Positions 4,399-61,900 are shown, counted from the whole stretch's first letter. The stretch: 62,632 nt of DNA, filler included, from Stramenopiles sp. TOSAG23-2 (GCA_900128395.1; 28 parts of 28 records of this genome joined end to end with filler, not necessarily neighbours in it); one strand, 5' to 3'. The notes: a model not told the origin generated them from the letters alone. Numbers and translations: made by a program.

Positions 4399-5629
4399 NN
4401 NNNNNNNNNNNNNNNNNNNNNNNNNNNNNNNNNNNNNNNNNNTTAATTAATTAANNNNNNNNNNNNNNNNNNNNNNNNNNNNNNNNNNNNNNNNNNNNAC
4501 AGGTGTTGATACTTAATTTTTTCTTTGTATTAATTTATATATGATACCCTTTGAAATAGTATGTTATCAAATGAATCGTATTACAATGAAATCAAGAGAT
4601 GAAAAGGTGGTTATGAAGACAATACAAACAGATTGTACTTTTACTTCCACTTTCTCTTTGAACCCTTTTGTGATGTTGCACACAAATCTTTCTACTAATA
4701 GTACTTATATATATATATATTTGATGAAGAAAAAAAAGCTGTGTGTTGTTGATACTATTTCCATGCTAATTTGCTGTTTGTCGGTTGAATAAGCCAATAT
4801 AATAAGTATGGTACAATGGGCAAGCTGGCAAGGATAAGGTATATGATGTAATATATCCGTATAATATATAGAGCAGGTGTGGCATTTTAAAATGAACAAT
4901 ATCCACCTCCACTGAGTTCACCTCCGCCGTGATATTTACCTTAAATTAGGCACGTTTTTGACAGAATACGAAAACATACTAAATAATTATATTTCATGTA
5001 TTAATTATCAATTAATTACATACAAAGTGAATGAGATGTATACTAATTTTGGTCAATTTTGGTAAAAATGAGAATTGGATAAAATATACTTCATCAGAGC
5101 TGGTCTATCTAATACTTCGTCAGAGGTGGTCTATCTAATGCTATGCAGGTACTAATTGTTTACATTCCCATTTTATGTCGATCCTATTCCCCCATGCCGA
5201 TGTAATCTGTAATGCTATGTCCCTTCTAATTGTTTAAAGACAATTTTATACAATAGTATTCCGATGCTATTCCAAGCCTGTAAAATTTTGTATACTTACA
5301 AGTATATACAATCAAAATTCTAGTTTTAAACATAATACCATGTCCCCACCATTGTGTAGCACGTATACAGCACTACAGATCCACCAAAACCAGTCAATTC
5401 TTCTAAACCCTAATCCTAACTCAGTTAATCGAGAATCGGATTCTATCTTACATAACATCAAAATATTAACACTACACACTATTGATAAATGATAAATTAT
5501 AAATTTAAATATATATATATTTATAACACACACGTACATACTAGATGTAGACACGAAACATAATATTACGTAAATCAAAAGACAATTAAGAGTAACAAAA
5601 AGTATATTCTATATTTATTTTAATACATC

Positions 5630-5965: not shown

Positions 5966-7113
5966 ATAATTGTACTTAAAAGTATTTATTTTAAAAAAAA
6001 AAAGAAATGTGATATAAATGTATATTATGGATATTTTAAATTTTCTATTGAAACAAGATGGTATTATATTAGATATGTTTGATATGAAGCAAGTGTTCAC
6101 AAAGAACAGTATCGAGATGTGGATACATGATGGTTTATATTTGGATACTATATATGTTAATAAATGTTGTGATTATAGTAAACATTGTGATCAAAAATGG
6201 ATATATAAGACCCCAGCTTTTTTCCATCTGGAAAAAAATAATAAAAAAAAGTATTTCTAATATTTAAAATCTTTTATGTTATGTTGAAAATAATATATAT
6301 GTGTATATAAACGTTTACTACATATACACATCTATTATATATAATTATGACTCCCATTCTCTGTTTAATTTTTTACGTACGTAATTTTTTTAATACGAAG
6401 TATTAATTTCTCGTTTTAGCACATCTCTTTTGCTCCTCCTCATTTTATCAAGATGAACTATCTCCTACTATATACGCATATGATACGAATATCATTTAGT
6501 ACAACATGATGTGGATATAAAAACTATAATATACACTGTACAACTTCAATTTTCCACCATATCATTTTGAAAAAAAAAAAAACTCTCAAGTACGCAATAC
6601 TCTACCATTACCATCTCGTATACCACGTTCACCATTTCCAAAATCATNNNNNNNNNNNNNNNNNNNNNNNNNNNNNNNNNNNNNNNNNNNNTTAATTAAT
6701 TAANNNNNNNNNNNNNNNNNNNNNNNNNNNNNNNNNNNNNNNNNNNNGGAAGCAGCTGGTTTGTTTCGCTTGTTAAAAACGCTGGAGTAGGATCTACTAA
6801 AAAATAAATTGACACACACGAAAATGCAAAAATATTTGGAGAGAGAGAGAGAGCGCGCGCGCACGAACGTTTTAATTATATATTCGTACGAATATTGAAA
6901 AAGAAAAAATAGACGCGAGAGAGAAATATTTCAACTTTTGTGGTATATATATACGCGATGTTATGGAGTGTGTATCTAGAGAACTTTTTTAAGTGTGTGT
7001 TACGTATTTAGCAACCTGCATTAATTTAAAATAAAAAAAATTTAAATTTTTTATACCGAAAGCCGGCGTATATTTTGTGTGTTAATTTCAATTCGGATTT
7101 CCCCCCGCACACG

Positions 7114-7367
7114 CACACTATTTTTTACTATTTCCATCTTCTTCTAGTTTCATCCCACTCATTTGATCAGCTAATGCTTTTTTAATTCCATCGCTTTTTC
7201 CTCCACCAGAACGCATTCGGCGTAACATTTCCTCCTTCTCCACACTATTTTTTACTATTTCCATCTTCTTCTAGTTTCATCCCACTCATTTGATCAGCTA
7301 ATGCTTTTTTAATTCCATCGCTTTTTCCTCCACCAGAACGCATTCGGCGTAACATTTCCTCCTTCTC
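7114..7367. repeat. Perfect 127-bp tandem duplication covering the WD40 gene 3' end
   Basis: 7114-7240 is identical to 7241-7367 (CACACTATTTTTTACTATTTCC...CCTCCTTCTC). Confidence 0.92.
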
Positions 7368-8080
7368 TTCTGCTGCCAATTTAAGTCTTTCTTCCTCTAA
7401 ATCAAATTCTTCAACTGGAATTGAAGTATACATAGCACTGAAGCCTCCCCAACCCTTTACTCTTGTTTTTCTATCACCCGTATACAGTATTTGCCCATTA
7501 GCTGACCACAACATCGCAGTAATTGGTGTAGGTATCTTTGGTGGCTTTTCATTTCTATTTCGTTCCTCTACATTCATTGTAGTGAAATCATCAGCAGTCA
7601 TACGGAAAAAATATTTCATGCGTAAAGATGCATGTACAGTTGTTCGATGGAAAATCAATGCACGAACATCCCAAAAATACATATACCCATCATTGGATGA
7701 GGATATTAACATTCCTAATGTATTATATGGATAATCACCCGTTTGAGGGGAACATAATAAACTGTTGGCTCCTTTTCTATGTCCAAAACCTTCACCAATT
7801 ACTTCCCAATCTTTTGACTTCCAAATTTTCAATACATCTTTGCAAATTGACGCTAAATGCCCTCTCCATTCACATAATGCTGTGACTGGGTGATCATGTG
7901 CATGTTTGATACTATGGTTGCAAAGCCAGCTGTGGAGCGTAGCGTATGAATGAGTAATGTAATGTGTTAGAGGATATACCTTTATTTTAAGTTTAGGAGA
8001 AGAGAATTTATTACTTGCCCACTAGTTACGTCCCATATATTAACCGTGCCACATTTATGTCCAGTGCAAGCATAATTCAT
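7245..8080 (-). CDS. WD40-repeat protein (exons 8080-8019 and 7929-7245; true start uncertain)
   Basis: Splicing a GC-AG intron (7930-8018) gives MNYACTGHKCGTVNIWDVTSG|WLCNHSIKHAHDHPVTAL...LKIWK...GH...SSSNDGYMYFWD...LYTGDRKTRVKGW, with GH...WD repeat signatures. Confidence 0.7.
7930..8018 (-). mobile_element. 89-bp GC-AG spliceosomal intron, candidate introner copy
   Basis: G|GCAAGT donor, CTAAC branch site and ...GCTACGCTCCACAG acceptor. Removal restores the reading frame. Similar along its length to the intron at 56993-57072. Confidence 0.65.
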
Positions 8081-8153
8081 TCTTAGGAGAAGAGAATTTA
8101 TTACTTGCCCACTAGTTACGTCCCATATATTAACCGTACCACATTTATGTCCA
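7993..8153. repeat. Direct repeat with 90-bp period covering the WD40 exon and donor site
   Basis: 7993-8063 matches 8083-8153 with one mismatch. Confidence 0.85.
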
Positions 8154-8996
8154 TATACATCTTTTTTATTTTTTTATAACGGGTATTTTATTGAAATTAT
8201 TAGAGATGTGTGTGCATTCATGTGCTCATCACAATCGTGCAATCGTGCAATCTGGCAATCTGGCAATCTGGCAATCATCCGGGCAAATCACATCCCTGGG
8301 ATCCCAGGGATCTCCCAGATCTCAATATTTTCATACTTTTTTTATATTTTTGCAGCGCTTTAGTAGTCTGCGTCGTCAGACTCTAGCGCTTTAGCTTCTT
8401 TTGTCTCTCTATCTCCTCAAAATTATATACGACAGGTATAGTACCCAGAGTACACAGATCTAGTAGTGTTGCCTATCAAACAGGTGTGATTGGAGATTGG
8501 AAGGTGGGCAACCAGCATTCAAACTAAAGCGAGCCCGGCAAGCCACAAATATATGGACTCCCCACAATGCTATGTCCATGCTGTACGATATAATAAAAAA
8601 TGTATACTAATAGCCATAGCCACTTTTTGAATTGCCAGATTGCATCCATCATTTTAATAAATAATTGAATTTGGACACACCACATAATAGACTATAATAC
8701 ATTGCAAACTTGGGCGGGGGAAATTCGAAATAAACATATAAGATTAAAATAGATAGGTACATACTATTTATAATTACAATACATTTATATTACAATTACA
8801 ATACATTTATATTACTAATTGCATTGCATACATACATACATATATATGTATATGGTATATTAATTTTTTTTATCTTTTTTCCTTTTTTTATTATAANNNN
8901 NNNNNNNNNNNNNNNNNNNNNNNNNNNNNNNNNNNNNNNNTTAATTAATTAANNNNNNNNNNNNNNNNNNNNNNNNNNNNNNNNNNNNNNNNNNNN

Positions 8997-12170: not shown

Positions 12171-13393
12171 ATGGGATCTGGCGTAAGTACCGAGAATATG
12201 ACTGATGAACAATACAAAGAAGCTGTTGATAAATTATTTGCAGAAGTTGCTTCTATTCGTGAATCAAATCCAGGAAATCGTTGCGTTAAATATTTAACAC
12301 GCGAAATATTTGACTCATATGACAGAGCTGATCAAATGACATTGTACAAGTGTGCTAGAACTGGTATTGAAAACAAAGATTCTGGTCTAGGTTGCTATGC
12401 AATGAAACCAGAAGATTATACCAAGTTCGAAAATTTTTTCGACCCGTTAATTCGTGACTATCATGGTGCAGCAGCTGATGCCGTACATGTAACCGATTGG
12501 GATGCTTCCGCTGTTGGCGAGAATGGTGTATTGGACGTCACAAAACTTGGTTTGGAAGAGCTCTCCATGCGTGTCCGCGTTGGCCGTAACTTGGCTCAAT
12601 TCAACCTTCCAGGCTTAATGGACCAGGCAGAACGTATTAAATTTGAAGTCACCATGCTTCAAGCATTTGCAAAACTTATTGAAGATCCAGAGTTTAAAGG
12701 CACTATCTATTCCATGTCACCAAACCATGGCGAAGGTGTTGAAAATCCAAATTTGATCGACGATGCAAAATACAAAGAGCTTGTAGATGCGCACGTCATG
12801 TTTAAAGATATGGATGCAGATCCATTCTTGAAAAGCGCAGGTATCAGTTCTGACTGGCCATATGGCCGTGGCTGTTGGCAATCGGAAGATAAACAATGTA
12901 TCATTTGGTTCGGTGAGGAAGATCAATTACGTATTATGTGCATGAAAAAAGGCACAAAATTAAATGAAGTTTTTGATCGTTTGAAAAAATTATTGGATAA
13001 GGTTGAATCCATCGATGGCATCGAATTTGCAAAAAGTGATAAATATGGTTATGTTACCTCGTGTCCAAGTAATTTAGGAACTGGTATGCGTGCTTCTGTT
13101 CATGTCAAATTGCCAAACTTAACTTCAGACGGCACTGATGCAAAAGCTAAGGAAGTGTGTAATCCACTTGGATTATCGGTACGTGGTACTGGTGGTGAGC
13201 ATACACCAATTGGCGCTGATGGAACCGTTGATATTTCACCTCGTGCACGTCTTTTCATTAAAGAGCGTGATATTATTCAAGCTCTATTTGACGGTATCAG
13301 TAAACTTATGGTTAAAGAGAAAGAGGCTGCATCTGCAACAACAACAGAGGAAGCACCAAAAGAGGAAGCATCAAAAGAGGAAGCACCAAAAGA
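12171..13393 (+). CDS. Phosphagen (arginine-type) kinase, ATP:guanido phosphotransferase (last codons truncated)
   Basis: SMRVRVGRN, WPYGRG, EEDQLR, CPSNLGTGMRASVH and SVRGTGGEH motifs; N-terminus MGSGVS. Confidence 0.95.
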
Positions 13394-23101: not shown

Positions 23102-23997
23102 ATGGCGTCAAGAAATACAAAACAACGGAAAGAGGAGAAGGACGATGATGATGATGAAATTAAAAACATATACGATGTATGTGGTATACCAGGTTTGTTT
23201 AAAAATATTTTAAAATTTTTAAATGTTAAACCTATATTAAAAATGAGTGAGTCTTGTTTAGTGAAAAATTTAGGACATGCAAGTTTTAATGAGTGTGTAA
23301 CTGAAGCGATAAGTAAACCAAAACAGTTGTTTGAGCTATATCAAAGGTACGGAAACGAGTTTGAAGGAAATACTGCATTGGTATGTGCATGTGAACACGG
23401 GCGTATGAATGATGTGTTATTATTTGTAAATTTACATCGTTTTCATAAATATATTGAAATGAACGGTGTGAAAGAAGGTAATATGACGTTGAACGAGATG
23501 GTGAATGAAGTCGGTAGGAGTAGTCGTGGTAGTGATTGGACACCTTTAAGTGCAGCTGCATGGAACGAACATTTCCACATAGTTCAATATTTGATTGAGC
23601 AAGGTGAAGCTGATCCTAACATTGCAGATATTGGTGGATGGAATGCATTACATTATGCAGCACAGTTGAATAGAACGACTACTGAGTTGATTCAATTGTT
23701 ATTAACTCGTATGACTCTTGAGAGCATTAATAAGAAGGACGGGGACGGAGAGACTCCCCTGGACAGGGCATATCTTCTTAATGATAGTCCAATTCGCCAA
23801 GAGATCATTGCACTTATACGTTCAAAAGGTGGANNNNNNNNNNNNNNNNNNNNNNNNNNNNNNNNNNNNNNNNNNNNNNNNNNNNNNNNNNNNNNNNNNN
23901 NNNNNNNNNNNNNNNNNNNNNNNNNNNNNNNNNNNNNNNNNNNNNNNNNNNNNNNNNNNNNNNNNNNNNNNNNGGTAATGGTGATTTAAATCATTAA
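23102..23997 (+). CDS. F-box-like/ankyrin-repeat protein, array copy 2 (internal N gap)
   Basis: N-terminal IPGLFKNILKFLNVKPILKMSESC (F-box-like, moderate support) and about 4 ankyrin repeats. After the gap it ends GNGDLNH*, as copy 1 does. Confidence 0.85.
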
Positions 23998-47139: not shown

Positions 47140-49271
47140 TCATCTACTTTTGACATGATGAACAATAATTCTTTTTTTTCATCCAAAACCATTTTTAAAT
47201 TACGAAGACAACTATCATCTTCTAATACACCTCCTGTCAAAATTATTACAACATATTCAGCTTCTGAAACAACAGATGTAATTGTTTGTTGGCGAGACAA
47301 TAATGATTTTTCTATATCTTGACCAATATGTTTTCCAGATTTTATATTGTCAACTGAGTTTTCAGCATAAATGACCATAAATGAATGTTTTTTAAAAGTA
47401 GGATGAATTGGTCTAGGTACTTGAATCTTAGCACGACGTAACAATTCATATAGCATACTTTTATATTCAAATCCACGACGACGATGTGGTATCATTTTCT
47501 CAGTATTATACATGTCAATTATTAATTGACGTATGTGATTTGCAGTATTTGGACTGCTTTTTAACTTGGAAAATTTAGTAAATCCCATATCTTTGGTCTC
47601 AAGATCCGTATATGTATATTGTAACGTTGAAACCATTTTCCCTTTTGCATTATATCCCATCGAACTTTTCCATCCACGTTCTTCTGCATTTTTATGATTT
47701 GACTTGCGCGAACACATGTTTTTCTGCCAACGTTTTAAATCCCATTGCCAAAACATTGGATTTTCTTCCACAATCACAATAATTGGTTTCTTATACAACA
47801 ATGCAGTAGCAAATTCCAACAAACAATACCATCGTGACATATAACTATTTGTTAATATAACTAAAAATACATCTGAATCAATTACACCTTGTATCATACT
47901 ATTTGCATCAATATTTTTTTGTGACATATCACGCCATACATGTACCCCTAATCTAGCCAATGCATTGTATAACAAGCCAGCTTCACCTGATGATTCTGCT
48001 TGGGAATGTGATATGAACATATGGTATTCCATTTTCTGTTCGTCAGGTTTATTATTATTTGGATTTAAAAAACGATGACATAATATAGTTTTTATGGATG
48101 GTCTCGCAGATGGATCCCCTTTCAAACAATGTCGAATTAAGTTGCGTGCATCATTCGTCATGTGTGGGTTGTTTGAATTGTATGGAAAATTAATTACCGT
48201 TAAATGTGAATCGGGTATAGTATGCCATGCGCATAGTATAGTTTTATCAACTTCATTGACAATATTATCATTATTGATATCTTGTTTAAACAAATTCTGA
48301 CCTGAACAAAGTTCATATAGTAAAACACCTAAGGACCACACATCGAATGATTCTTTGATGAAAGGCGGCTCCTCATTAACTCGAAAGATATATCTTGCAA
48401 TTTCTGGAGGAATATATCCAGAACTATATTTGAATCGATGGCCATTTTTTCTGTAATCCCTCCCTTCCTTGTCTTCTTCAATATTGTTGTAAGCAGCGTC
48501 AAGATCACATAGGGTTATGTCTGTATTACCTAAAACTGTTTCTCCGTTTCCGCCTTCATTTTTTTTATTATTGTGAACAACAAGCAAGTTTCTCCATTTT
48601 AAATCGGTATGAATTATTTTACACTTATGAAGCTGCTCGACTCGTTTAACTATCCTTTTGAAATACGTAGGAACTTTCTCCTGGTTGCCAGCTACCCGTA
48701 GTGAGTTGAGCTTCTGAAATAAAGACATATTTGCATGTTGTAAAATTAAAACAAAACGCTTGGAGCCATGTTCTTCTTTTAAATCGCGTTTTAGTAAGTN
48801 NNNNNNNNNNNNNNNNNNNNNNNNNNNNNNNNNNNNNNNNNNNNNNNNNNNNNNNNNNNNNNNNNNNNNNNNNNNNNNNNNNNNNNNNNNNNNNNNNTAA
48901 ATCGCGTTTTAGTAAGTCTCTTCTTTTCCATCCTTTTATTTTGTTGAAATCTTCTTTTGTTAAGTTTTCTCCTTTCCATTTTATCTTCTTCTCTAATTCA
49001 TCAAATTCTTCACACCAGTTTTCTTTTACCCATTTTTCTTCTGCGTGCCATCCAAGTAATTTGATGGTTGAGTCACAGATATCTTTGTGTAGTCGACATA
49101 TTATCTCACGTATAAATTCTACTGAATTTTCCATTAACTTAACAACAACTTTTTCATTACCATCCATTGCATCCATTGCGCTATAAATATTGCTAGTCTT
49201 AGACTGGTGCATAGAATCTAATTGCATCAATTCGTATCTATTGAACATATACTTTCGCAAAGTTGTTTTTG
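47140..49271 (-). CDS. Protein kinase-TIR-TIR fusion (both ends truncated; internal N gap is spurious)
   Basis: Kinase motifs VVVKLM, HTDLKWRN, DLDAA, SSGYIPPE and DVWSLG. TIR motifs MFISHSQ...VWRD...SDVFLVILT...RWYCLLEF, then a second TIR-like unit. The flanks of gap 48800-48897 overlap by 20 bp, giving one frame. Confidence 0.85.
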
Positions 49272-51601: not shown

Positions 51602-53728
51602 TACTTTGGCCATTACATTGCACCACGAATCACAATGAAAGTTATTTGTACTGATGATACAAGAAATACCACTACGGTTAAATTTAGTAAAAATCCTACC
51701 TATAAGAATGATGTTAAATACAATGTCACGGTAAAAGGTGCAGAGACTAAAGTTTTAACCAACAACGTGCTTGCGTATAAAATTGAATCTCCATCATGGC
51801 TCTATGCTAACCGAAACACCAAATTTTTCACCCCATCAAAGCTAACATTTGGGTTTCAGCACGAAGAAACGTTAGTTCCTGGGTATACGTTAAAACTAGG
51901 CAACGGTATATTTAAGGCGGAGACCAGCGTCAACTTTAAATGCTTAGCATGGACCACACCTGCAGTCGAATATGAAGGTTTGCAACAAACAGACGTAGAA
52001 TGTACGTGTTCTAACTCACGAGTCTCAAGCATGCAATCGAAAATCAATCGTGAAAAAGTGTGTGCATCAGCCCCAGTAACCCGAGTAATTGGCGCGACGA
52101 TCACCGATTTACAAAAGCTCATTGTATTGCCAAAGGAGATCGATGTTAATGTTGCTGCAAATCAGCTCGTGACTGGGCCTGGCATCGCATATGATACAAA
52201 AGTTATTTCCATTTCCAGTGACAGGAAGCAAATCACAATCAGTAAAATGGCACGTTTAACTTTCAATGGCAATGTGGATATATCGTTTTGGAAACCTGTT
52301 GTAGAGGTAGGCGATAAAGATTATAATACGTTTTGTGCTGGAAATGGCAATACCGTGGATGGTGAATGCCTTTGCTGCCCTCTGCGAGGTAGGTTTCCAC
52401 GCGCATGTGAAGTTGCTGGAAATAATATCGGGGCAGAAGACATATGTACGAATGATTATTACACAATACCGAAAGCCAACATACTAAATGATGGCACGAA
52501 TAACATTAAAATTGCAAATCACAATTTGTTAGATGGGGACAAAGTAGTTTACAGTCGAGGTTTACTAAAGTCAGGATTGGTTAATAAAGTTTCAGAGTTG
52601 ACCGAAACAAAAACATACACTGTCGTTCGAGTCGACAACGACAATATCCGACTAACACTAGTATCATTAGACTCTACTAATAATAATGCTGTCGTGACGA
52701 CTGCTGTTACTTTACCAACAGATACTAAAAAAAATGGCAACGACGAACAAACATTGACGGCGGTAGCAAAATTGTCTGCCCTCATCAGTTGTAGGAAAAT
52801 AGAAGTTAACACTGCAGGTAACCCCGATAAAATCATATATGTAGACGGTTTAAAACGCGTACCACATGCATGTATGTGCGGAGACACAGAAATCGACACT
52901 GGAAGCACGTGTCTACATGAACGGTTCTCCTCAAAAGAGCTACCGGTCTGTCCTGGCCAGCAAGGCGAGACGAATGACGTTTTTTGTGCATGTTGTAATG
53001 CCGCAGGTACATGCGAACGTGCAGAAGTCGGTGAAACTTGCCACAACGGAAAGGCAGAATTCCCAGCTTCCTGCGCGGCAAGGGATGGAGGAAGTGCTGT
53101 GGTGAAAATGTGCGATTGTGGAAATCAAAAAAATATTGCACCCGGCCAAATATGCAACGACGAGAACGCCAAGGATGAATACACTTTTCCTATTTGCGAA
53201 TTAGATAATGGATATAGCCCCAATATATATAATGGATATATCGAAAAGTGCTCCTGCTGCAGTACAGACTTGAATGATTGTAAAATAACGTCAGCCACGG
53301 ATACATGTCTCACGACACAAACGACTGCTACGGTAGCACCGTTAGCCGCTTGCGCCATCAGCGACGGCGCTGCCGTTACGCGTGTAGTATGCGTGTGCGG
53401 GTCAACCTATCTACTTCCTGGTGAAGTTTGTTACGAGTCGATGAAATTGGACAAATGCACGGGTTCCGGCCTCGCAGTTTCCTCTACATGCGCTTGTTGT
53501 AATGAAAACGGCGACGTTTGCACGCCCGCTTCAACGGGGGACACCTGCACGAGTCAAGGAGCCGTAGCACGGATTGATACATGTGTAGGTGGTAACACGT
53601 TAGAACCCACGGAAGTCACTTGCAACTGTGGCGATATTCAGGCGCAGCCAAATCAGGTCTGCGCTCACCATATAGAGGCAAATCTGAAATTATCAATATG
53701 CAGCGATGATGGAAACGTTGTTGATCAG
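51602..53728 (+). CDS. Large Cys-rich extracellular/surface protein (both ends truncated)
   Basis: Open frame with repeated C-x-C/CC units of about 35 aa; visibly higher GC than most contigs. Confidence 0.75.
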
Positions 53729-56393: not shown

Positions 56394-58126
56394 ATGTCAG
56401 CCAAAATTGGTATTCAATCAATTTTACAAGATGATGATTGCTGTTCAAAAATATTTACATTTTTACCAAAAGAAGATATTATACGTTTTGGATGGTTTGT
56501 TTCAAAAGATTGTGCACTAAATATTAGTGGTGAAACTTGGCGTACTACCACATGCAAATACAAATGGAAAAATGCAAATGGTTACAACATTATGGAACGG
56601 TTTGAATCTGAATTTCAAAACGACTTAGAGGAAATTAATAGTCATCAATGTATGTACCGTGACCTTTACCACCATGTTGTCAAGTTAGAACGTTCTAGCT
56701 TGATTTTTGACCTAGGAAGTGAGACAGTGAAGTGCGGATATAGTTGTGAAAGCTATCCATTCATTTGTGAGCCAACATCTAAATTTTTCAATACAAACAA
56801 TTGTAAAAAAGAATTTAATACATCTGCATCTACTGCGGTATATGCTGAGGTTATTCGAAATATATTAAAGTATTTAAATGTCGATATGCAAATAGCAAAG
56901 ATATTTTTTATTATTCGCCCGTTTGATTTGGGATATGTTAACGTGTTTGTTGAGCCACAACAAATTATCAGAAAAATTGGAACTGCATGCTTGTAAGTAT
57001 AATTCTATTTCCTTGAACTTACAGTAGATATCCTCTCTAACACATCCCTCATTAATATGCTACGCTCCACAGTGAGATTTTAAATATACAAGAAATATGT
57101 TTTGAGTATGAAAGCGTATGTGCATTAAATTTTTATGGCAAACAAAATGGTATTGTACTTAGCTGCGGAAACAATATGTCTTATGTTTGCAATGTTCATA
57201 ATGGATTAATGATAAAACCACGTTTACCGAAGACAATGATCTCAAAGATTGGTGGAAAACATTTAACAATTTTAATGAAGAATATGATCAATAAAGATAA
57301 TAAAACAATGATTGATGGGAATTATAAATGTTCAGCTAATGATGCAAGAGTATTGAAAGAAGAATATACTTATACACGCGCTGCTGTCTCAAAATGGTGC
57401 CCATCCACATCTGATGTAGACGGTTTTTTATTGGATTCAGAAAATTATACTTTAGAAAATGATAGTGTGACTATTAAATTGCGAGAGGAACGTTTTTTGA
57501 TACCAGAAGCACTGTTTGACCCATCTTTATTTTCTAAGTATCATGTTTTGGAAAATGATAGATACGAACGTGAGTTTTTCTCTGTTCAAGAACTTTGCAG
57601 GCGAACAACAAATGCAATTGAGACAGATGATCGAAAGTTAGATATCCATAGTTCATTAGTATGTATAGGGGGAGGTCTTGACTTTCCATGTTTTGAATTG
57701 AGATTGCATCGTGAATTGCGACGAATGAAATTAAGAGTAATGAAAGTTCATACTGGGGACAATATGAAAGTGGCAGATAAAAAAAGCAGTCGTCGTGCTA
57801 GTAATATTATTAGCAGTTCATATTCATATGGATTATATAATACAGATACAATTAAAAGTAACAGCAACAAGAGAATTTATACTAGTTGGAGAGGAGCATG
57901 TTATTTTTGTCATGGAAGGATCAGTGAAAAGGTAAACACTGACACTTCTATTAGTGAATTAGAAAAGAAGAATACTGCATACAAACGAAAACATGGATTT
58001 TCGCGTTGGGTTGATAAAAATGCATGGAATAAATTTGGATCATCAGCTTTTTATAAAGATATTACACCAACTAATATTTATAATGAAATAAATCGCCGTA
58101 ATAATGGATTACTGAAAAAGAAGTGA
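56394..58126 (+). CDS. F-box-like/actin-related protein (exons 56394-56992 and 57073-58126; about 550 aa)
   Basis: IFDLGSETVKCG; the spliced junction gives FEILNIQEICFEYESVCALNFYGKQNGIVLSCG; ERFLIPEALFDP, IGGG..FP and SWRGA are actin-fold motifs; N-terminal KIFTFL...FVSK is F-box-like. Confidence 0.85.
56993..57072 (+). mobile_element. 80-bp GT-AG intron, candidate introner copy
   Basis: GTAAGT...CTAAC...GCTACGCTCCACAG; removal fuses the two ORFs into a continuous actin fold; similar to the intron at 7930-8018. Confidence 0.7.
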
Positions 58127-60508: not shown

Positions 60509-61900
60509 TCACTTCCGAAAGAAATTACATCACCATTATGTCTTTTACTTGCAATTGACTGTGCACACTCAGCGTGGGGAGTAATTCAACCAAATACTCC
60601 ATCCAGACGGCATAAACAATTAGTAATAGATACTATCGTTGATTTTGTATGTGTTGCATTGCCCCTTTGTTTGATGCGATTCGCATATCAAGTACCAATA
60701 ACCATTTCTGAGATGATTAGTGTTACTCTGATGCCAACCTTTTTCATGTTGGCAAAATTGGATGATATATTTGAAGAAATAGTACGACGTCGAACCTTCA
60801 ATTCAGTTTTAAAAGAACAGACACGAAAATCATTTCTTCAAAAAAGGAGAAGGGAAAGTTTATTTCAACAGATTACATATCTTGAAATAGCAGAAAAACA
60901 AGAAAACAATGTACCCCGTATTATTAAAATTGCTGTTAGCATTTGCAAAGGTTTATTTGCACTTTTCTTTTTCATTGTTGGCATGATACATCTAATATCA
61001 TATCCTACAAAATGCGATGAAACAACTTGGGTTAAAGGCTGTGTAAATAAAGTTCCATTTTGTCAAAGTTTACTTACGCCGACGTGCAATTGTATGTCTC
61101 TACGGATTGAAAATGATTATACGCTAAATATGTTACCAAATAGTGTAGTAGACGAAATGACTGGGTTGAGAACAGTGTATATACGTAATTGCAATTTGAC
61201 GAAATTACCTTCGGGAATGGAACAGTTAACAGAAATGGTAAAATTTGAAGTTCGGTTTACTCTTTTGGATTCGTTTGATGTGAATATATTAAAGTGGAAC
61301 AAATTAAATAAATTGCATTTAATGCATAATAATATTACAGTTTATAATGAAGTTGCAATATGGCATCATCCTGGTCTTGAGGCTCTTAATTTAGGTCATA
61401 ATGATATAAAAATGCCTGCAAATGGTATTGATTTGCCTTCGTTAGATTATCTTTACCTTAGCGACAATAATCTTGATTTTACAACTCCAATCGGAGTAGA
61501 TAATATACCACACCTTACTTTTTTATATTTAAATGGCAATCGTTTGGTAACTTTTCCAGCAGAGTCGTTAAAAGATAATCTTGTGAAATTAGGCATTAGC
61601 CGTTGCTCGTTGAAGTCTCTGCCTTCGTATTTATCCAAGTTTAAAGCGTTGCGTTATTTAGATGCCAGGGATAATAATATCACTCATGTAGAAAATGATT
61701 TCAAATTATTGATGGAGAAAAACTCGATGGAAACATATTTTTCTGGAAATCATGTTTGTAACGGAGATAAATCGTTAGATTGTGAACCACTTTGTTCAAA
61801 AACTTGTTGGAGTAAACGAGTTTCAAATGATGGGATTTGTGATTATTCTTGTAACTCTGAAGCTTGTAAATTTGATGGCGGAGATTGTACCAATTCGTAA
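60509..61900 (+). CDS. Multipass TM + LRR + C-terminal LNR (Notch/Lin-12) repeat receptor-like protein (5' truncated)
   Basis: TM helices, a Cys cap, about 8 LxxLxLxxN repeats, then CEPLCSKTCWSKRVSNDGICDYSCNSEACKFDGGDC (LNR). Confidence 0.85.
   Translation, partial: SLPKEITSPLCLLLAIDCAHSAWGVIQPNTPSRRHKQLVIDTIVDFVCVALPLCLMRFAYQVPITISEMISVTLMPTFFMLAKLDDIFEEIVRRRTFNSVLKEQTRKSFLQKRRRESLFQQITYLEIAEKQENNVPRIIKIAVSICKGLFALFFFIVGMIHLISYPTKCDETTWVKGCVNKVPFCQSLLTPTCNCMSLRIENDYTLNMLPNSVVDEMTGLRTVYIRNCNLTKLPSGMEQLTEMVKFEVRFTLLDSFDVNILKWNKLNKLHLMHNNITVYNEVAIWHHPGLEALNLGHNDIKMPANGIDLPSLDYLYLSDNNLDFTTPIGVDNIPHLTFLYLNGNRLVTFPAESLKDNLVKLGISRCSLKSLPSYLSKFKALRYLDARDNNITHVENDFKLLMEKNSMETYFSGNHVCNGDKSLDCEPLCSKTCWSKRVSNDGICDYSCNSEACKFDGGDCTNS

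Follow-up and report, generated by a model that had tools for sequence, protein, structure and literature searches.

The origin of new spliceosomal introns is a long-standing question, and introners are, to our knowledge, the sole known process that makes such introns at genomic scale. The present locus raises this question for two short introns in unrelated genes, intron A in an actin-related gene and intron B in a gene for a WD40 protein: do they belong to one introner family, what does the unit of this family consist of, and by which route has it spread? The initial annotation of this DNA had described the pair as a candidate introner family. This proposal is supported here by the finding of many copies, by their location in unrelated genes and by the splicing of intron A in RNA. 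It is near certain, in our view, that both introns are members of a family of complete spliceosomal introns present in multiple copies, that is, of an introner family in the broad sense. Taken as a whole, the data are very probably best explained by an introner family having the anatomy and the spread set out below, with an RNA route favored.

Introns A and B and their genes

The window, by which we mean the whole stretch of DNA analyzed (62,632 nucleotides, filler included), is made up of 28 contigs of ~2.15 kb each, arranged by length and joined by N44-TTAATTAATTAA-N44 spacers. Intron A lies on the contig at 56056-58182 and intron B on the contig at 6748-8896. Given the spacers between contigs, the two introns sit on separate contigs, as the initial annotation had assumed. 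The sequences of both introns, as quoted in the initial annotation, were re-read and are exact.

The features of the intron A gene are as follows.

56394..56992, + strand: exon upstream of intron A, an ORF for the N-terminal part of a divergent actin-related protein
56993..57072, + strand: intron A, family member of 80 nt, GT..AG, phase 2, in the actin-related gene
56993..56998, + strand: 5' splice site GTAAGT of intron A, from the sequence and the RNA junction
57027..57072, + strand: 3' 45 nt of intron A, matched at 90-95% by many other metagenome contigs
57035..57041, + strand: putative branch-site motif CTCTAAC of intron A, ~32 nt from the 3' end
57073..58126, + strand: exon downstream of intron A, actin fold (Pfam Actin, E = 1.5e-12)

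Without intron A, 204 open codons upstream are joined to >300 downstream. Exon 2 matches Arp2 and actin chains (E = 2e-9) from near actin residue 127, and the junction falls within the actin fold. Exon 1 has weak PDB matches only, of which the best is to an unrelated chain (E = 0.045), and actin-like 6A is matched at E ~1. We mapped Logan contigs of the RNA runs X15 and X16, both from one study, and of the DNA runs X1 and X2 to the contig of intron A. One contig each in X15 and X16 joins position 56992 to position 57073, so that exactly 80 bases with GT..AG ends are skipped; the shorter side of the junction measures 221 and 95 letters in these contigs. Intron A is thus removed by splicing at the predicted borders, and the possibility that transcripts are not spliced here, which the initial annotation had allowed for, is refuted for this intron. 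The DNA contigs of X1 and X2 carry intron A. The joined, intron-less form was found in none of the DNA contigs of these two runs, although contigs cannot show absence. Nor do the depths added up across intron A in this mapping represent its copy number. The intron A locus recurs in three of the metagenome loci described below (L006, L034, L038), and the contig of intron A was matched in 20 of 24 listed marine/seawater runs from 14 studies (6 recorded as RNA).

The features of the intron B gene, in order along the window, are as follows.

7245..7929, - strand: exon downstream of intron B, C-terminal part of a WD40 protein
7930..8018, - strand: intron B, family member of 89 nt, GC..AG with the donor GCAAGT, phase 2, in the WD40 gene
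7966..7972, - strand: putative branch-site motif CTCTAAC of intron B, from the sequence and the alignment with intron A
8083..8153, - strand: 71-nt second copy, comprising an exon end and the first 26-27 nt of intron B (nhmmer match 8108-8082)

In the window, removal of intron B leaves 51 open codons on the upstream and 228 on the downstream side; the corresponding numbers are 202 and 228 in L033, a metagenome contig that carries the same locus. WD40 Pfam matches flank intron B on both sides, and its removal makes a WD40 repeat continuous with the remainder of the protein. Compared with L033, the window contig shows a rearrangement in which 71 and 127 nt are duplicated; L033 has no duplicate of the 71-nt segment, and ~940-960 nt present in L033 are missing from the window contig. 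The 71-nt copy beside intron B is therefore probably a rearrangement of the window contig and lies outside the element, and we rejected this tandem repeat as an insertion footprint. Three protein records match at the site of intron B; these are ORFs called on unspliced DNA or beginning downstream of the site. Gene calls in prokaryote style begin inside intron B.

An alignment with MAFFT confirmed the reported likeness of the two introns, which are colinear, share 63 identical columns of 89 and are identical in their final 14 bases. The CTCTAAC motif is invariant between them. Both introns restore a reading frame, as had been claimed, with open codons on either side after removal. Allowing ≤3 mismatches, a 16-base block from the 3' end occurs within the window only at introns A and B; in 100 dinucleotide shuffles the mean number of matches was 0.03, and 0/100 shuffles reached 2. 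Likewise, a 17-base block from the branch region is found in the window only at these two introns (shuffle mean 0.19, 3/100 reaching 2). The scan of the window also agrees with the earlier observation that the other intron candidates (37159-.., and the acceptor near 35800) are devoid of the 3' block. A profile of the family (nhmmer) matches intron A at E = 5.7e-19 and intron B at E = 6.5e-16.

Size, anatomy and host genes of the family

From the introns we derived a two-block pattern with 24 fixed bases and a gap of 8-30. This pattern matched 38 marine metagenome contigs and had no match either in viral contigs or in prokaryote genome contigs totaling 596 Gb; it is thus not a chance occurrence at that scale. 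A profile built from the copies gave 50 nhmmer matches in 248,244 bases, comprising the 38 loci and the window, and added diverged copies that the two-block pattern had missed. Same-locus contigs from different assemblies, which are 97-99% identical, were merged for the site count. When collapsed in this manner, the matches represent 38 distinct insertion sites, 36 of them complete and 2 truncated where a sequence stops. Copies are consequently present at many non-homologous sites, as both the unrelated flanks and the Pfam families at the 38 sites show. The prediction of many copies, made from two, is borne out, and the possibility that only two exist is refuted. Given that 30 of the 38 sites come from the two-block pattern, conservation at its 24 positions reflects selection by the search.

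DNA contigs that are only 90-95% alike to the contig of intron A account for 23 of 28 contigs in X1 and 20 of 27 in X2. The listed pieces at 90-95% span only 57027-57073, that is, the 3' 45 bases of intron A, with unlike sequence beyond. The sequence that follows on the exon side varies among the contigs, and the 5' continuation resembles a diverged version of the first half of intron A. The background density of the family is ~40-42 kb per copy, which would amount to between several hundred and about a thousand copies if the genome measures 30-50 Mb, a size assumed here. By a crude count, 2 members of the family are found among some 5 introns of the window and, when the copy by which a locus had been selected is left out, 8 among some 12 introns of the loci. 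It appears to supply roughly half or more of the recognizable introns, a share that is rough since our intron finder requires strong signals and long ORFs and so misses introns.

The likeness between family members runs from the GTAAGT donor to the CACAG acceptor, and the flanks are unrelated genes. Copies have GTAAGT or a single-base variant of it as the donor, as in the GCAAGT of intron B, and at the 3' border CACAG, or a close variant of it, abuts the exon in all copies. The family consensus has a length of 79 nt (28 A, 24 C, 21 T, 6 G), and copies measure 71-98 nt, their length varying chiefly through short duplications close to the 5' end and within a CACAT-like stretch. To judge from its yeast-like motif, CTCTAAC is the likely branch point, and the presumed branch A lies 32 nt from the end of the consensus. 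With all three splice signals inside the unit, it can be removed cleanly in whatever exon context. The unit is the intron itself: an A/C/T-rich, G-poor and unstructured body between the donor and a block closed by CACAG.

Identity to the consensus averages 86% (range 69-98%) over the 55 columns outside the pattern-fixed blocks, and the natural copy closest to the consensus is L018:1624-1702 (-). The relations among copies are star-like, with one visible sub-family that shares a variant before the branch site. The closest copies at different sites are 95% identical, so that nothing in this sample indicates very recent activity. Copies form a graded series, down to those barely detected by the profile, as would be expected if old copies decay into ordinary-looking introns.

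Introns outside the family were identified in three of the loci and in the window.

L003 269-354: non-family intron; restores a long frame, shares only generic signals
L007 3474-3575: non-family intron; restores a long frame, shares only generic signals
L030 2755-2868: non-family intron, possibly degenerate
Window, 37159-.., acceptor near 35800, and 52484-52656: non-family introns

What these introns have in common with the family is only GTAAGT, a branch motif of the CTAAC type and AG. Their presence in the same genome argues that the likeness within the family is not a general splice consensus. The family consensus has 79 nt, compared with 86-114 nt in neighboring non-family introns.

The copies behave as clean introns in the genes that host them. 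At 32 of the 36 complete sites, no other donor restores the reading frame as well as that of the family. After removal, at least 50 open codons are present on both sides at 29 sites; at the remaining 7 the shorter side has 25-49 codons, or the site is located at a contig end. To follow domain continuity, the two exon sides were translated separately and scanned against Pfam. Profile coordinates abut across the junction for FAD_binding_3 in L018 (157|160, with one split codon), Sulfatase in L017 (94|96), ADP_ribosyl_GH in L025 (103|105) and FA_desaturase in L014, and they are near-contiguous for ArgJ, RPE65 and ABC_tran. These abutting coordinates indicate that insertion neither added nor removed residues. 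From frame restoration at 36 sites together with domain continuity, we infer that the copies beyond intron A are spliced as well. According to Pfam, the host genes encode FAD_binding_3, ArgJ, Sulfatase, FMO-like, Ank, ADP_ribosyl_GH, FA_desaturase, RPE65, ABC_tran, WD40, Actin and others, and given this range of unrelated families, the copies cannot stem from gene duplication.

Insertion sites and route of spread

No clear TSD or TIR had been seen at introns A and B, and none was found in the larger sample. Over the 36 sites there is no consistent TSD. The flanking direct repeat is shorter than 2 nt at 29 of them; repeats of at least 2 nt occur at 7/36 sites (shuffle mean 4.4) and repeats of at least 3 nt at 4/36 (shuffle mean 1.3, P = 0.04). 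A comparison of exon ends with intron ends at the same sites gave no repetition in any register. The exon consensus AG|G is absent, position -1 being G at 13, T at 13, A at 7 and C at 2 sites. Folds of 4 copies showed neither TIR nor hairpin, that is, no end-to-end pairing, and were no better than shuffles (MFE 0 to -6.1 kcal/mol, z -0.9 to +1.2). Rfam had no match for two family loci, and neither a longer element nor a partner gene was found in the 248 kb.

Each of the 36 complete copies lies within a reading frame and in the sense orientation, with no intergenic or antisense copy among them; ~19% of the loci lie outside ORFs of at least 100 aa. Introns A and B are both phase 2, as noted earlier. 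A family-wide phase bias is not significant, with 18, 11 and 7 sites in phases 2, 0 and 1, respectively (chi-square P = 0.076). Extra copies are clustered: 6 lie within 1 kb of another copy (52.6 kb), compared with 4 in the 170 kb elsewhere, window included (binomial P = 0.015). Copies within the same gene are not mutual closest relatives in 6 of 7 pairs, the exception being the pair in L030, and local duplication was therefore rejected as the source of same-gene copies. The clustering, combined with the unlikeness of same-gene copies, speaks more for susceptible genes than for local copying. Of the 8 duplicate locus pairs, on contigs that are 97-99% identical, each carries the intron in both of its members, and no pair of a filled and an empty site was found.

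We regard RNA-mediated reinsertion as the most likely route of spread and hold this view tentatively. An excised intron would be reverse-spliced into a transcript or into DNA, and could then be reverse-transcribed and fixed by recombination or repair, a course termed "intron transposition" or "spliceosomal retrohoming". This route is favored because the borders of the unit are splice sites, the junctions are clean, there is no TSD, TIR or tail, and the copies are exclusively genic and in the sense orientation. It is an argument from missing marks of a DNA transposon. Several considerations speak against it. Reverse splicing might prefer AG|G-like sites, of which none are seen, and selection alone could clear antisense copies and possibly, in a compact genome, intergenic ones. 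The same selection is part of the main competing explanation, namely a non-autonomous DNA transposon that carries both splice sites and the branch site, has an undetectable or variable TSD and is cleared from elsewhere in the genome. We consider this a genuine possibility, if not a probable one, and only slightly less likely than the RNA route. Surveys hold that most introners propagate as DNA, and families devoid of marks exist (PMC9860276, PMC12130899), also outside fungi (PMC9860276). The slight excess of flanking repeats of at least 3 nt over shuffles fits this explanation, and local hopping could produce the clustering of extra copies within 1 kb. A DNA transposon is harder to reconcile with the majority of sites, where not even 2 nt are repeated, with the want of TIR, hairpin, longer element and partner gene in the material searched, with the complete copies being neither intergenic nor antisense, and with same-gene copies that are mostly not closest relatives.

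Two further explanations dispense with a spreading unit. The likeness could result from functional constraint, all introns of an intron-poor genome having converged on one extended consensus. Introns of Giardia and Trichomonas have an extended 3' motif. The genome studied here is indeed intron-poor, and GTAAGT, CTAAC and AG are common to family and non-family introns. Beyond these generic signals, however, nothing is shared by the introns at L003 269-354, L007 3474-3575 and, in the window, 37159-.. and 52484-52656, and the conservation of 86% extends over 55 non-signal columns. Sub-families and shared indels, moreover, mark descent. We therefore consider constraint very improbable, and the suggestion of a lineage-wide splice consensus, named in the initial annotation as a possible refutation, is itself refuted by the unrelated introns of the same genome. 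Alternatively, the repeats could be artefacts, such as chimeras of assembly or amplification, adapter-like sequence, or duplicated genes. The rearranged contig of intron B demonstrates that the assembly contains artefacts. Yet contigs assembled independently, and runs from 14 studies, have the same introns at the same sites, intron A is spliced from RNA at exact borders, and the flanking genes belong to unrelated Pfam families, so that an artefactual origin is negligible in our view.

Host genome and comparison with known introners

The host genome is AT-rich and intron-poor. The window has a GC content of ~31%, and its long ORFs match, in Pfam, Pex14, ATP:guanido phosphotransferase, mitochondrial-type RNA polymerase, dyskerin and SLBP; further long ORFs encode BTB, ankyrin and LRR proteins, the latter with an LNR domain, a kinase with a TIR domain and the actin-related protein. 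These are ordinary eukaryotic nuclear proteins. No tRNA genes and no Rfam matches were found in the window. The closest named proteins to the dyskerin are from stramenopiles at ~80% identity, and metagenome and EukProt proteins match it at 97-99%. A search of a protein atlas returned generic dyskerin clusters only. In a dyskerin tree of 21 rows, the window sequence groups with environmental sequences, outside any named group. For a second, less conserved protein of the window, 5 relatives were found, with identities of 98, 65, 64 and 41%. The host is an uncultured marine eukaryote, possibly a heterotrophic stramenopile. Its GC content and intron density resemble the values published for MAST-4A (33.9% GC and 0.56 introns per gene; PMC5269757), a resemblance to be taken as a lead only. 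The contigs that carry the copies are all metagenomic, and a single genome of origin for all of them is suggested by their GC content of 28-37% and their gene style.

Among known systems, the introners of Micromonas pusilla are described as MITE-like, with a 3-nt TSD and TIR, bringing one splice site and obtaining the other from the duplication (PMC11282704). The present family is similar in its marine picoeukaryote host and in its many short, near-identical introns that leave the mRNA of unrelated genes intact. In contrast to the Micromonas introners as described there, its unit holds both splice sites and the branch site, and neither TSD nor TIR was found; it was thus not classified as a MITE-like DNA introner of the Micromonas type. 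For ILEs of the fungal Dothideomycetes, spliceosomal retrohoming or reverse splicing was favored (PMC3609843). With these elements, as characterized in that source, the family shares the complete intron as its unit, the lack of transposon marks, the bias toward genes and the degeneration of copies into ordinary-looking introns (PMC3609843). The family is unlike them in being unstructured, in having a non-fungal host and in not exceeding the non-family introns in length, and an assignment to fungal ILEs by length and stable structure was rejected. The introner of Aureococcus carries both splice sites and adds 12 bp (4 codons), including an 8-bp TSD, according to PMC9860276. The host is in each case a marine protist and both splice sites are carried by the element, whereas the present family adds no residues, Pfam coordinates abutting at 4 sites. 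A non-LTR retroposon or SINE-like introner was also rejected, the copies showing no poly-A or simple-repeat tail and no TSD.

The closest parallels are found among families of aquatic protists that lack such marks. In the surveys, ~72% of introner families could not be assigned to a mechanism, and family median lengths range from 30 to 654 nt (PMC9860276, PMC12130899). In "Parmales sp. scaly parma", one family makes up >91% of the recognizable gains, by a mechanism given as unknown (Gozashti et al., PMC9860276/PMC12130899). The present family resembles these in its unicellular host, in a length within the 30-654 nt range and in its large share of introns, a comparison made by description. The 2022 survey of Gozashti et al. 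screened 520 Tara Oceans genomes, and the family may already be listed among its results (PMC9860276). Our search of the literature on introners of MAST-4, of stramenopiles and of uncultured or metagenomic hosts found no paper that describes it. Families of such size without marks fall within the range reported by the surveys of 2022 and 2025, and the present one is an unusually small introner that carries none of the usual transposon marks.

The family comes near to the simplest possible introner, a pure intron of 79 nt with no marks and no structure that accounts for a large share of the introns of its host. The fuller proposition that a minimal, self-sufficient intron of this length multiplied via RNA in a non-fungal marine protist, and became the source of about half of the host introns, is doubtful when all its parts are taken together. 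An abundant, uncultured ocean host that is covered by many public metagenomes and metatranscriptomes provides a convenient case for distinguishing RNA- from DNA-mediated gain and for dating gains among natural populations. If the RNA route is true, filled and empty sites, lariats and reinsertions can be searched for in existing data, and this long-debated route becomes testable. The profile of the family can also serve in annotation: in contigs where gene callers of the prokaryote style report broken or truncated genes, it marks the genuine introns.

Several family introns in one gene and variation at their donors

Several genes carry two or three introns of the family, a few hundred bases apart, and the clustering is significant (P = 0.015). 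The copies that share a gene are mostly not one another's nearest relatives. The clusters lie on the following marine metagenome contigs:

L008 2416-2502 and 2670-2740: clustered family introns
L015 528-619 and 997-1081: clustered family introns
L030 2-52, 1647-1720 and 2060-2141: clustered family introns
L014 768-850 and 1003-1084: clustered family introns

In some family copies the first 10-15 bases of the element occur twice in a short tandem, which gives each of these introns two consecutive candidate donors:

L003 2854-2939: family copy with duplicated start
L019 1370-1464: family copy with duplicated start
L015 528-619: family copy with duplicated start

Donors also differ between strains at one and the same site, GTAAGT versus GTACGT, in the contig pairs L016/L024 and L019/L037, each pair being one locus taken from different assemblies; the population therefore carries segregating variants of the splice site. 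On L001 (1012 bases), the exon-intron junction near the start of the contig (98-173) recurs at its end (987-1012), which reflects either a terminal assembly repeat or some 890 bases duplicated in tandem.

The WD40 locus, public gene calls and unspliced copies

The window contig that contains intron B, in the WD40 gene, is rearranged relative to L033, a metagenome contig that covers this locus. Window 6748-8896 (minus strand) lacks approximately 940-960 nt of L033 and carries two direct duplications relative to it, of 71 nt and 127 nt, the longer of which breaks the reading frame. This arrangement is probably a chimera that arose in amplification or assembly, and otherwise a structural variant. 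Within the L033 stretch that the window contig lacks is a second, more diverged family intron of the gene:

L033 2308-2394, minus strand: second family intron of the WD40 gene, about 440 nt upstream of intron B

The public protein records for this gene, P0133 and P0134, are prokaryote-style ORF calls; the start of one is inside intron B, and that of the second lies downstream of the intron (window 7930-7945, minus strand). In public collections, family introns therefore truncate the gene calls made for this organism.

On a contig of RNA run X15, the 3' portion of one family intron runs on into the exon of metagenome contig L026 (loose ends at window 57072), so that the RNA libraries also contain unspliced copies, representing either pre-mRNA or DNA carry-over.

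Window structure, candidate introns outside the family and other genes

The window (1-62632) consists of 28 contigs of about 2.15 kb each, joined by spacers of the form N44-TTAATTAATTAA-N44 (2150-2249, 4399-4498, and so on), and holds additional N runs at 23834-23973, 46468-46470 and 48800-48897. Any ORF spanning a spacer is an artefact. Three candidate introns, which combine a generic GTAAGT or GTTAGT donor with AG and a branch motif of CTAAC type, fall outside the family:

37159-36968, minus strand: non-family candidate intron
near 35800, minus strand: non-family candidate intron
52484-52656, minus strand: non-family candidate intron

The window also encodes proteins that are notable in a protist:

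47088-48728, minus strand: protein kinase fused to a TIR domain
60659-61900, plus strand: LRR protein with a Notch LNR domain
12171-13393, plus strand: arginine-kinase-type phosphotransferase

An ankyrin-repeat coding stretch begins with an identical 20 bases at 23279 and 24605 (plus strand), approximately 1.3 kb apart on one contig, which suggests tandem ankyrin-repeat genes or a contig-end repeat.
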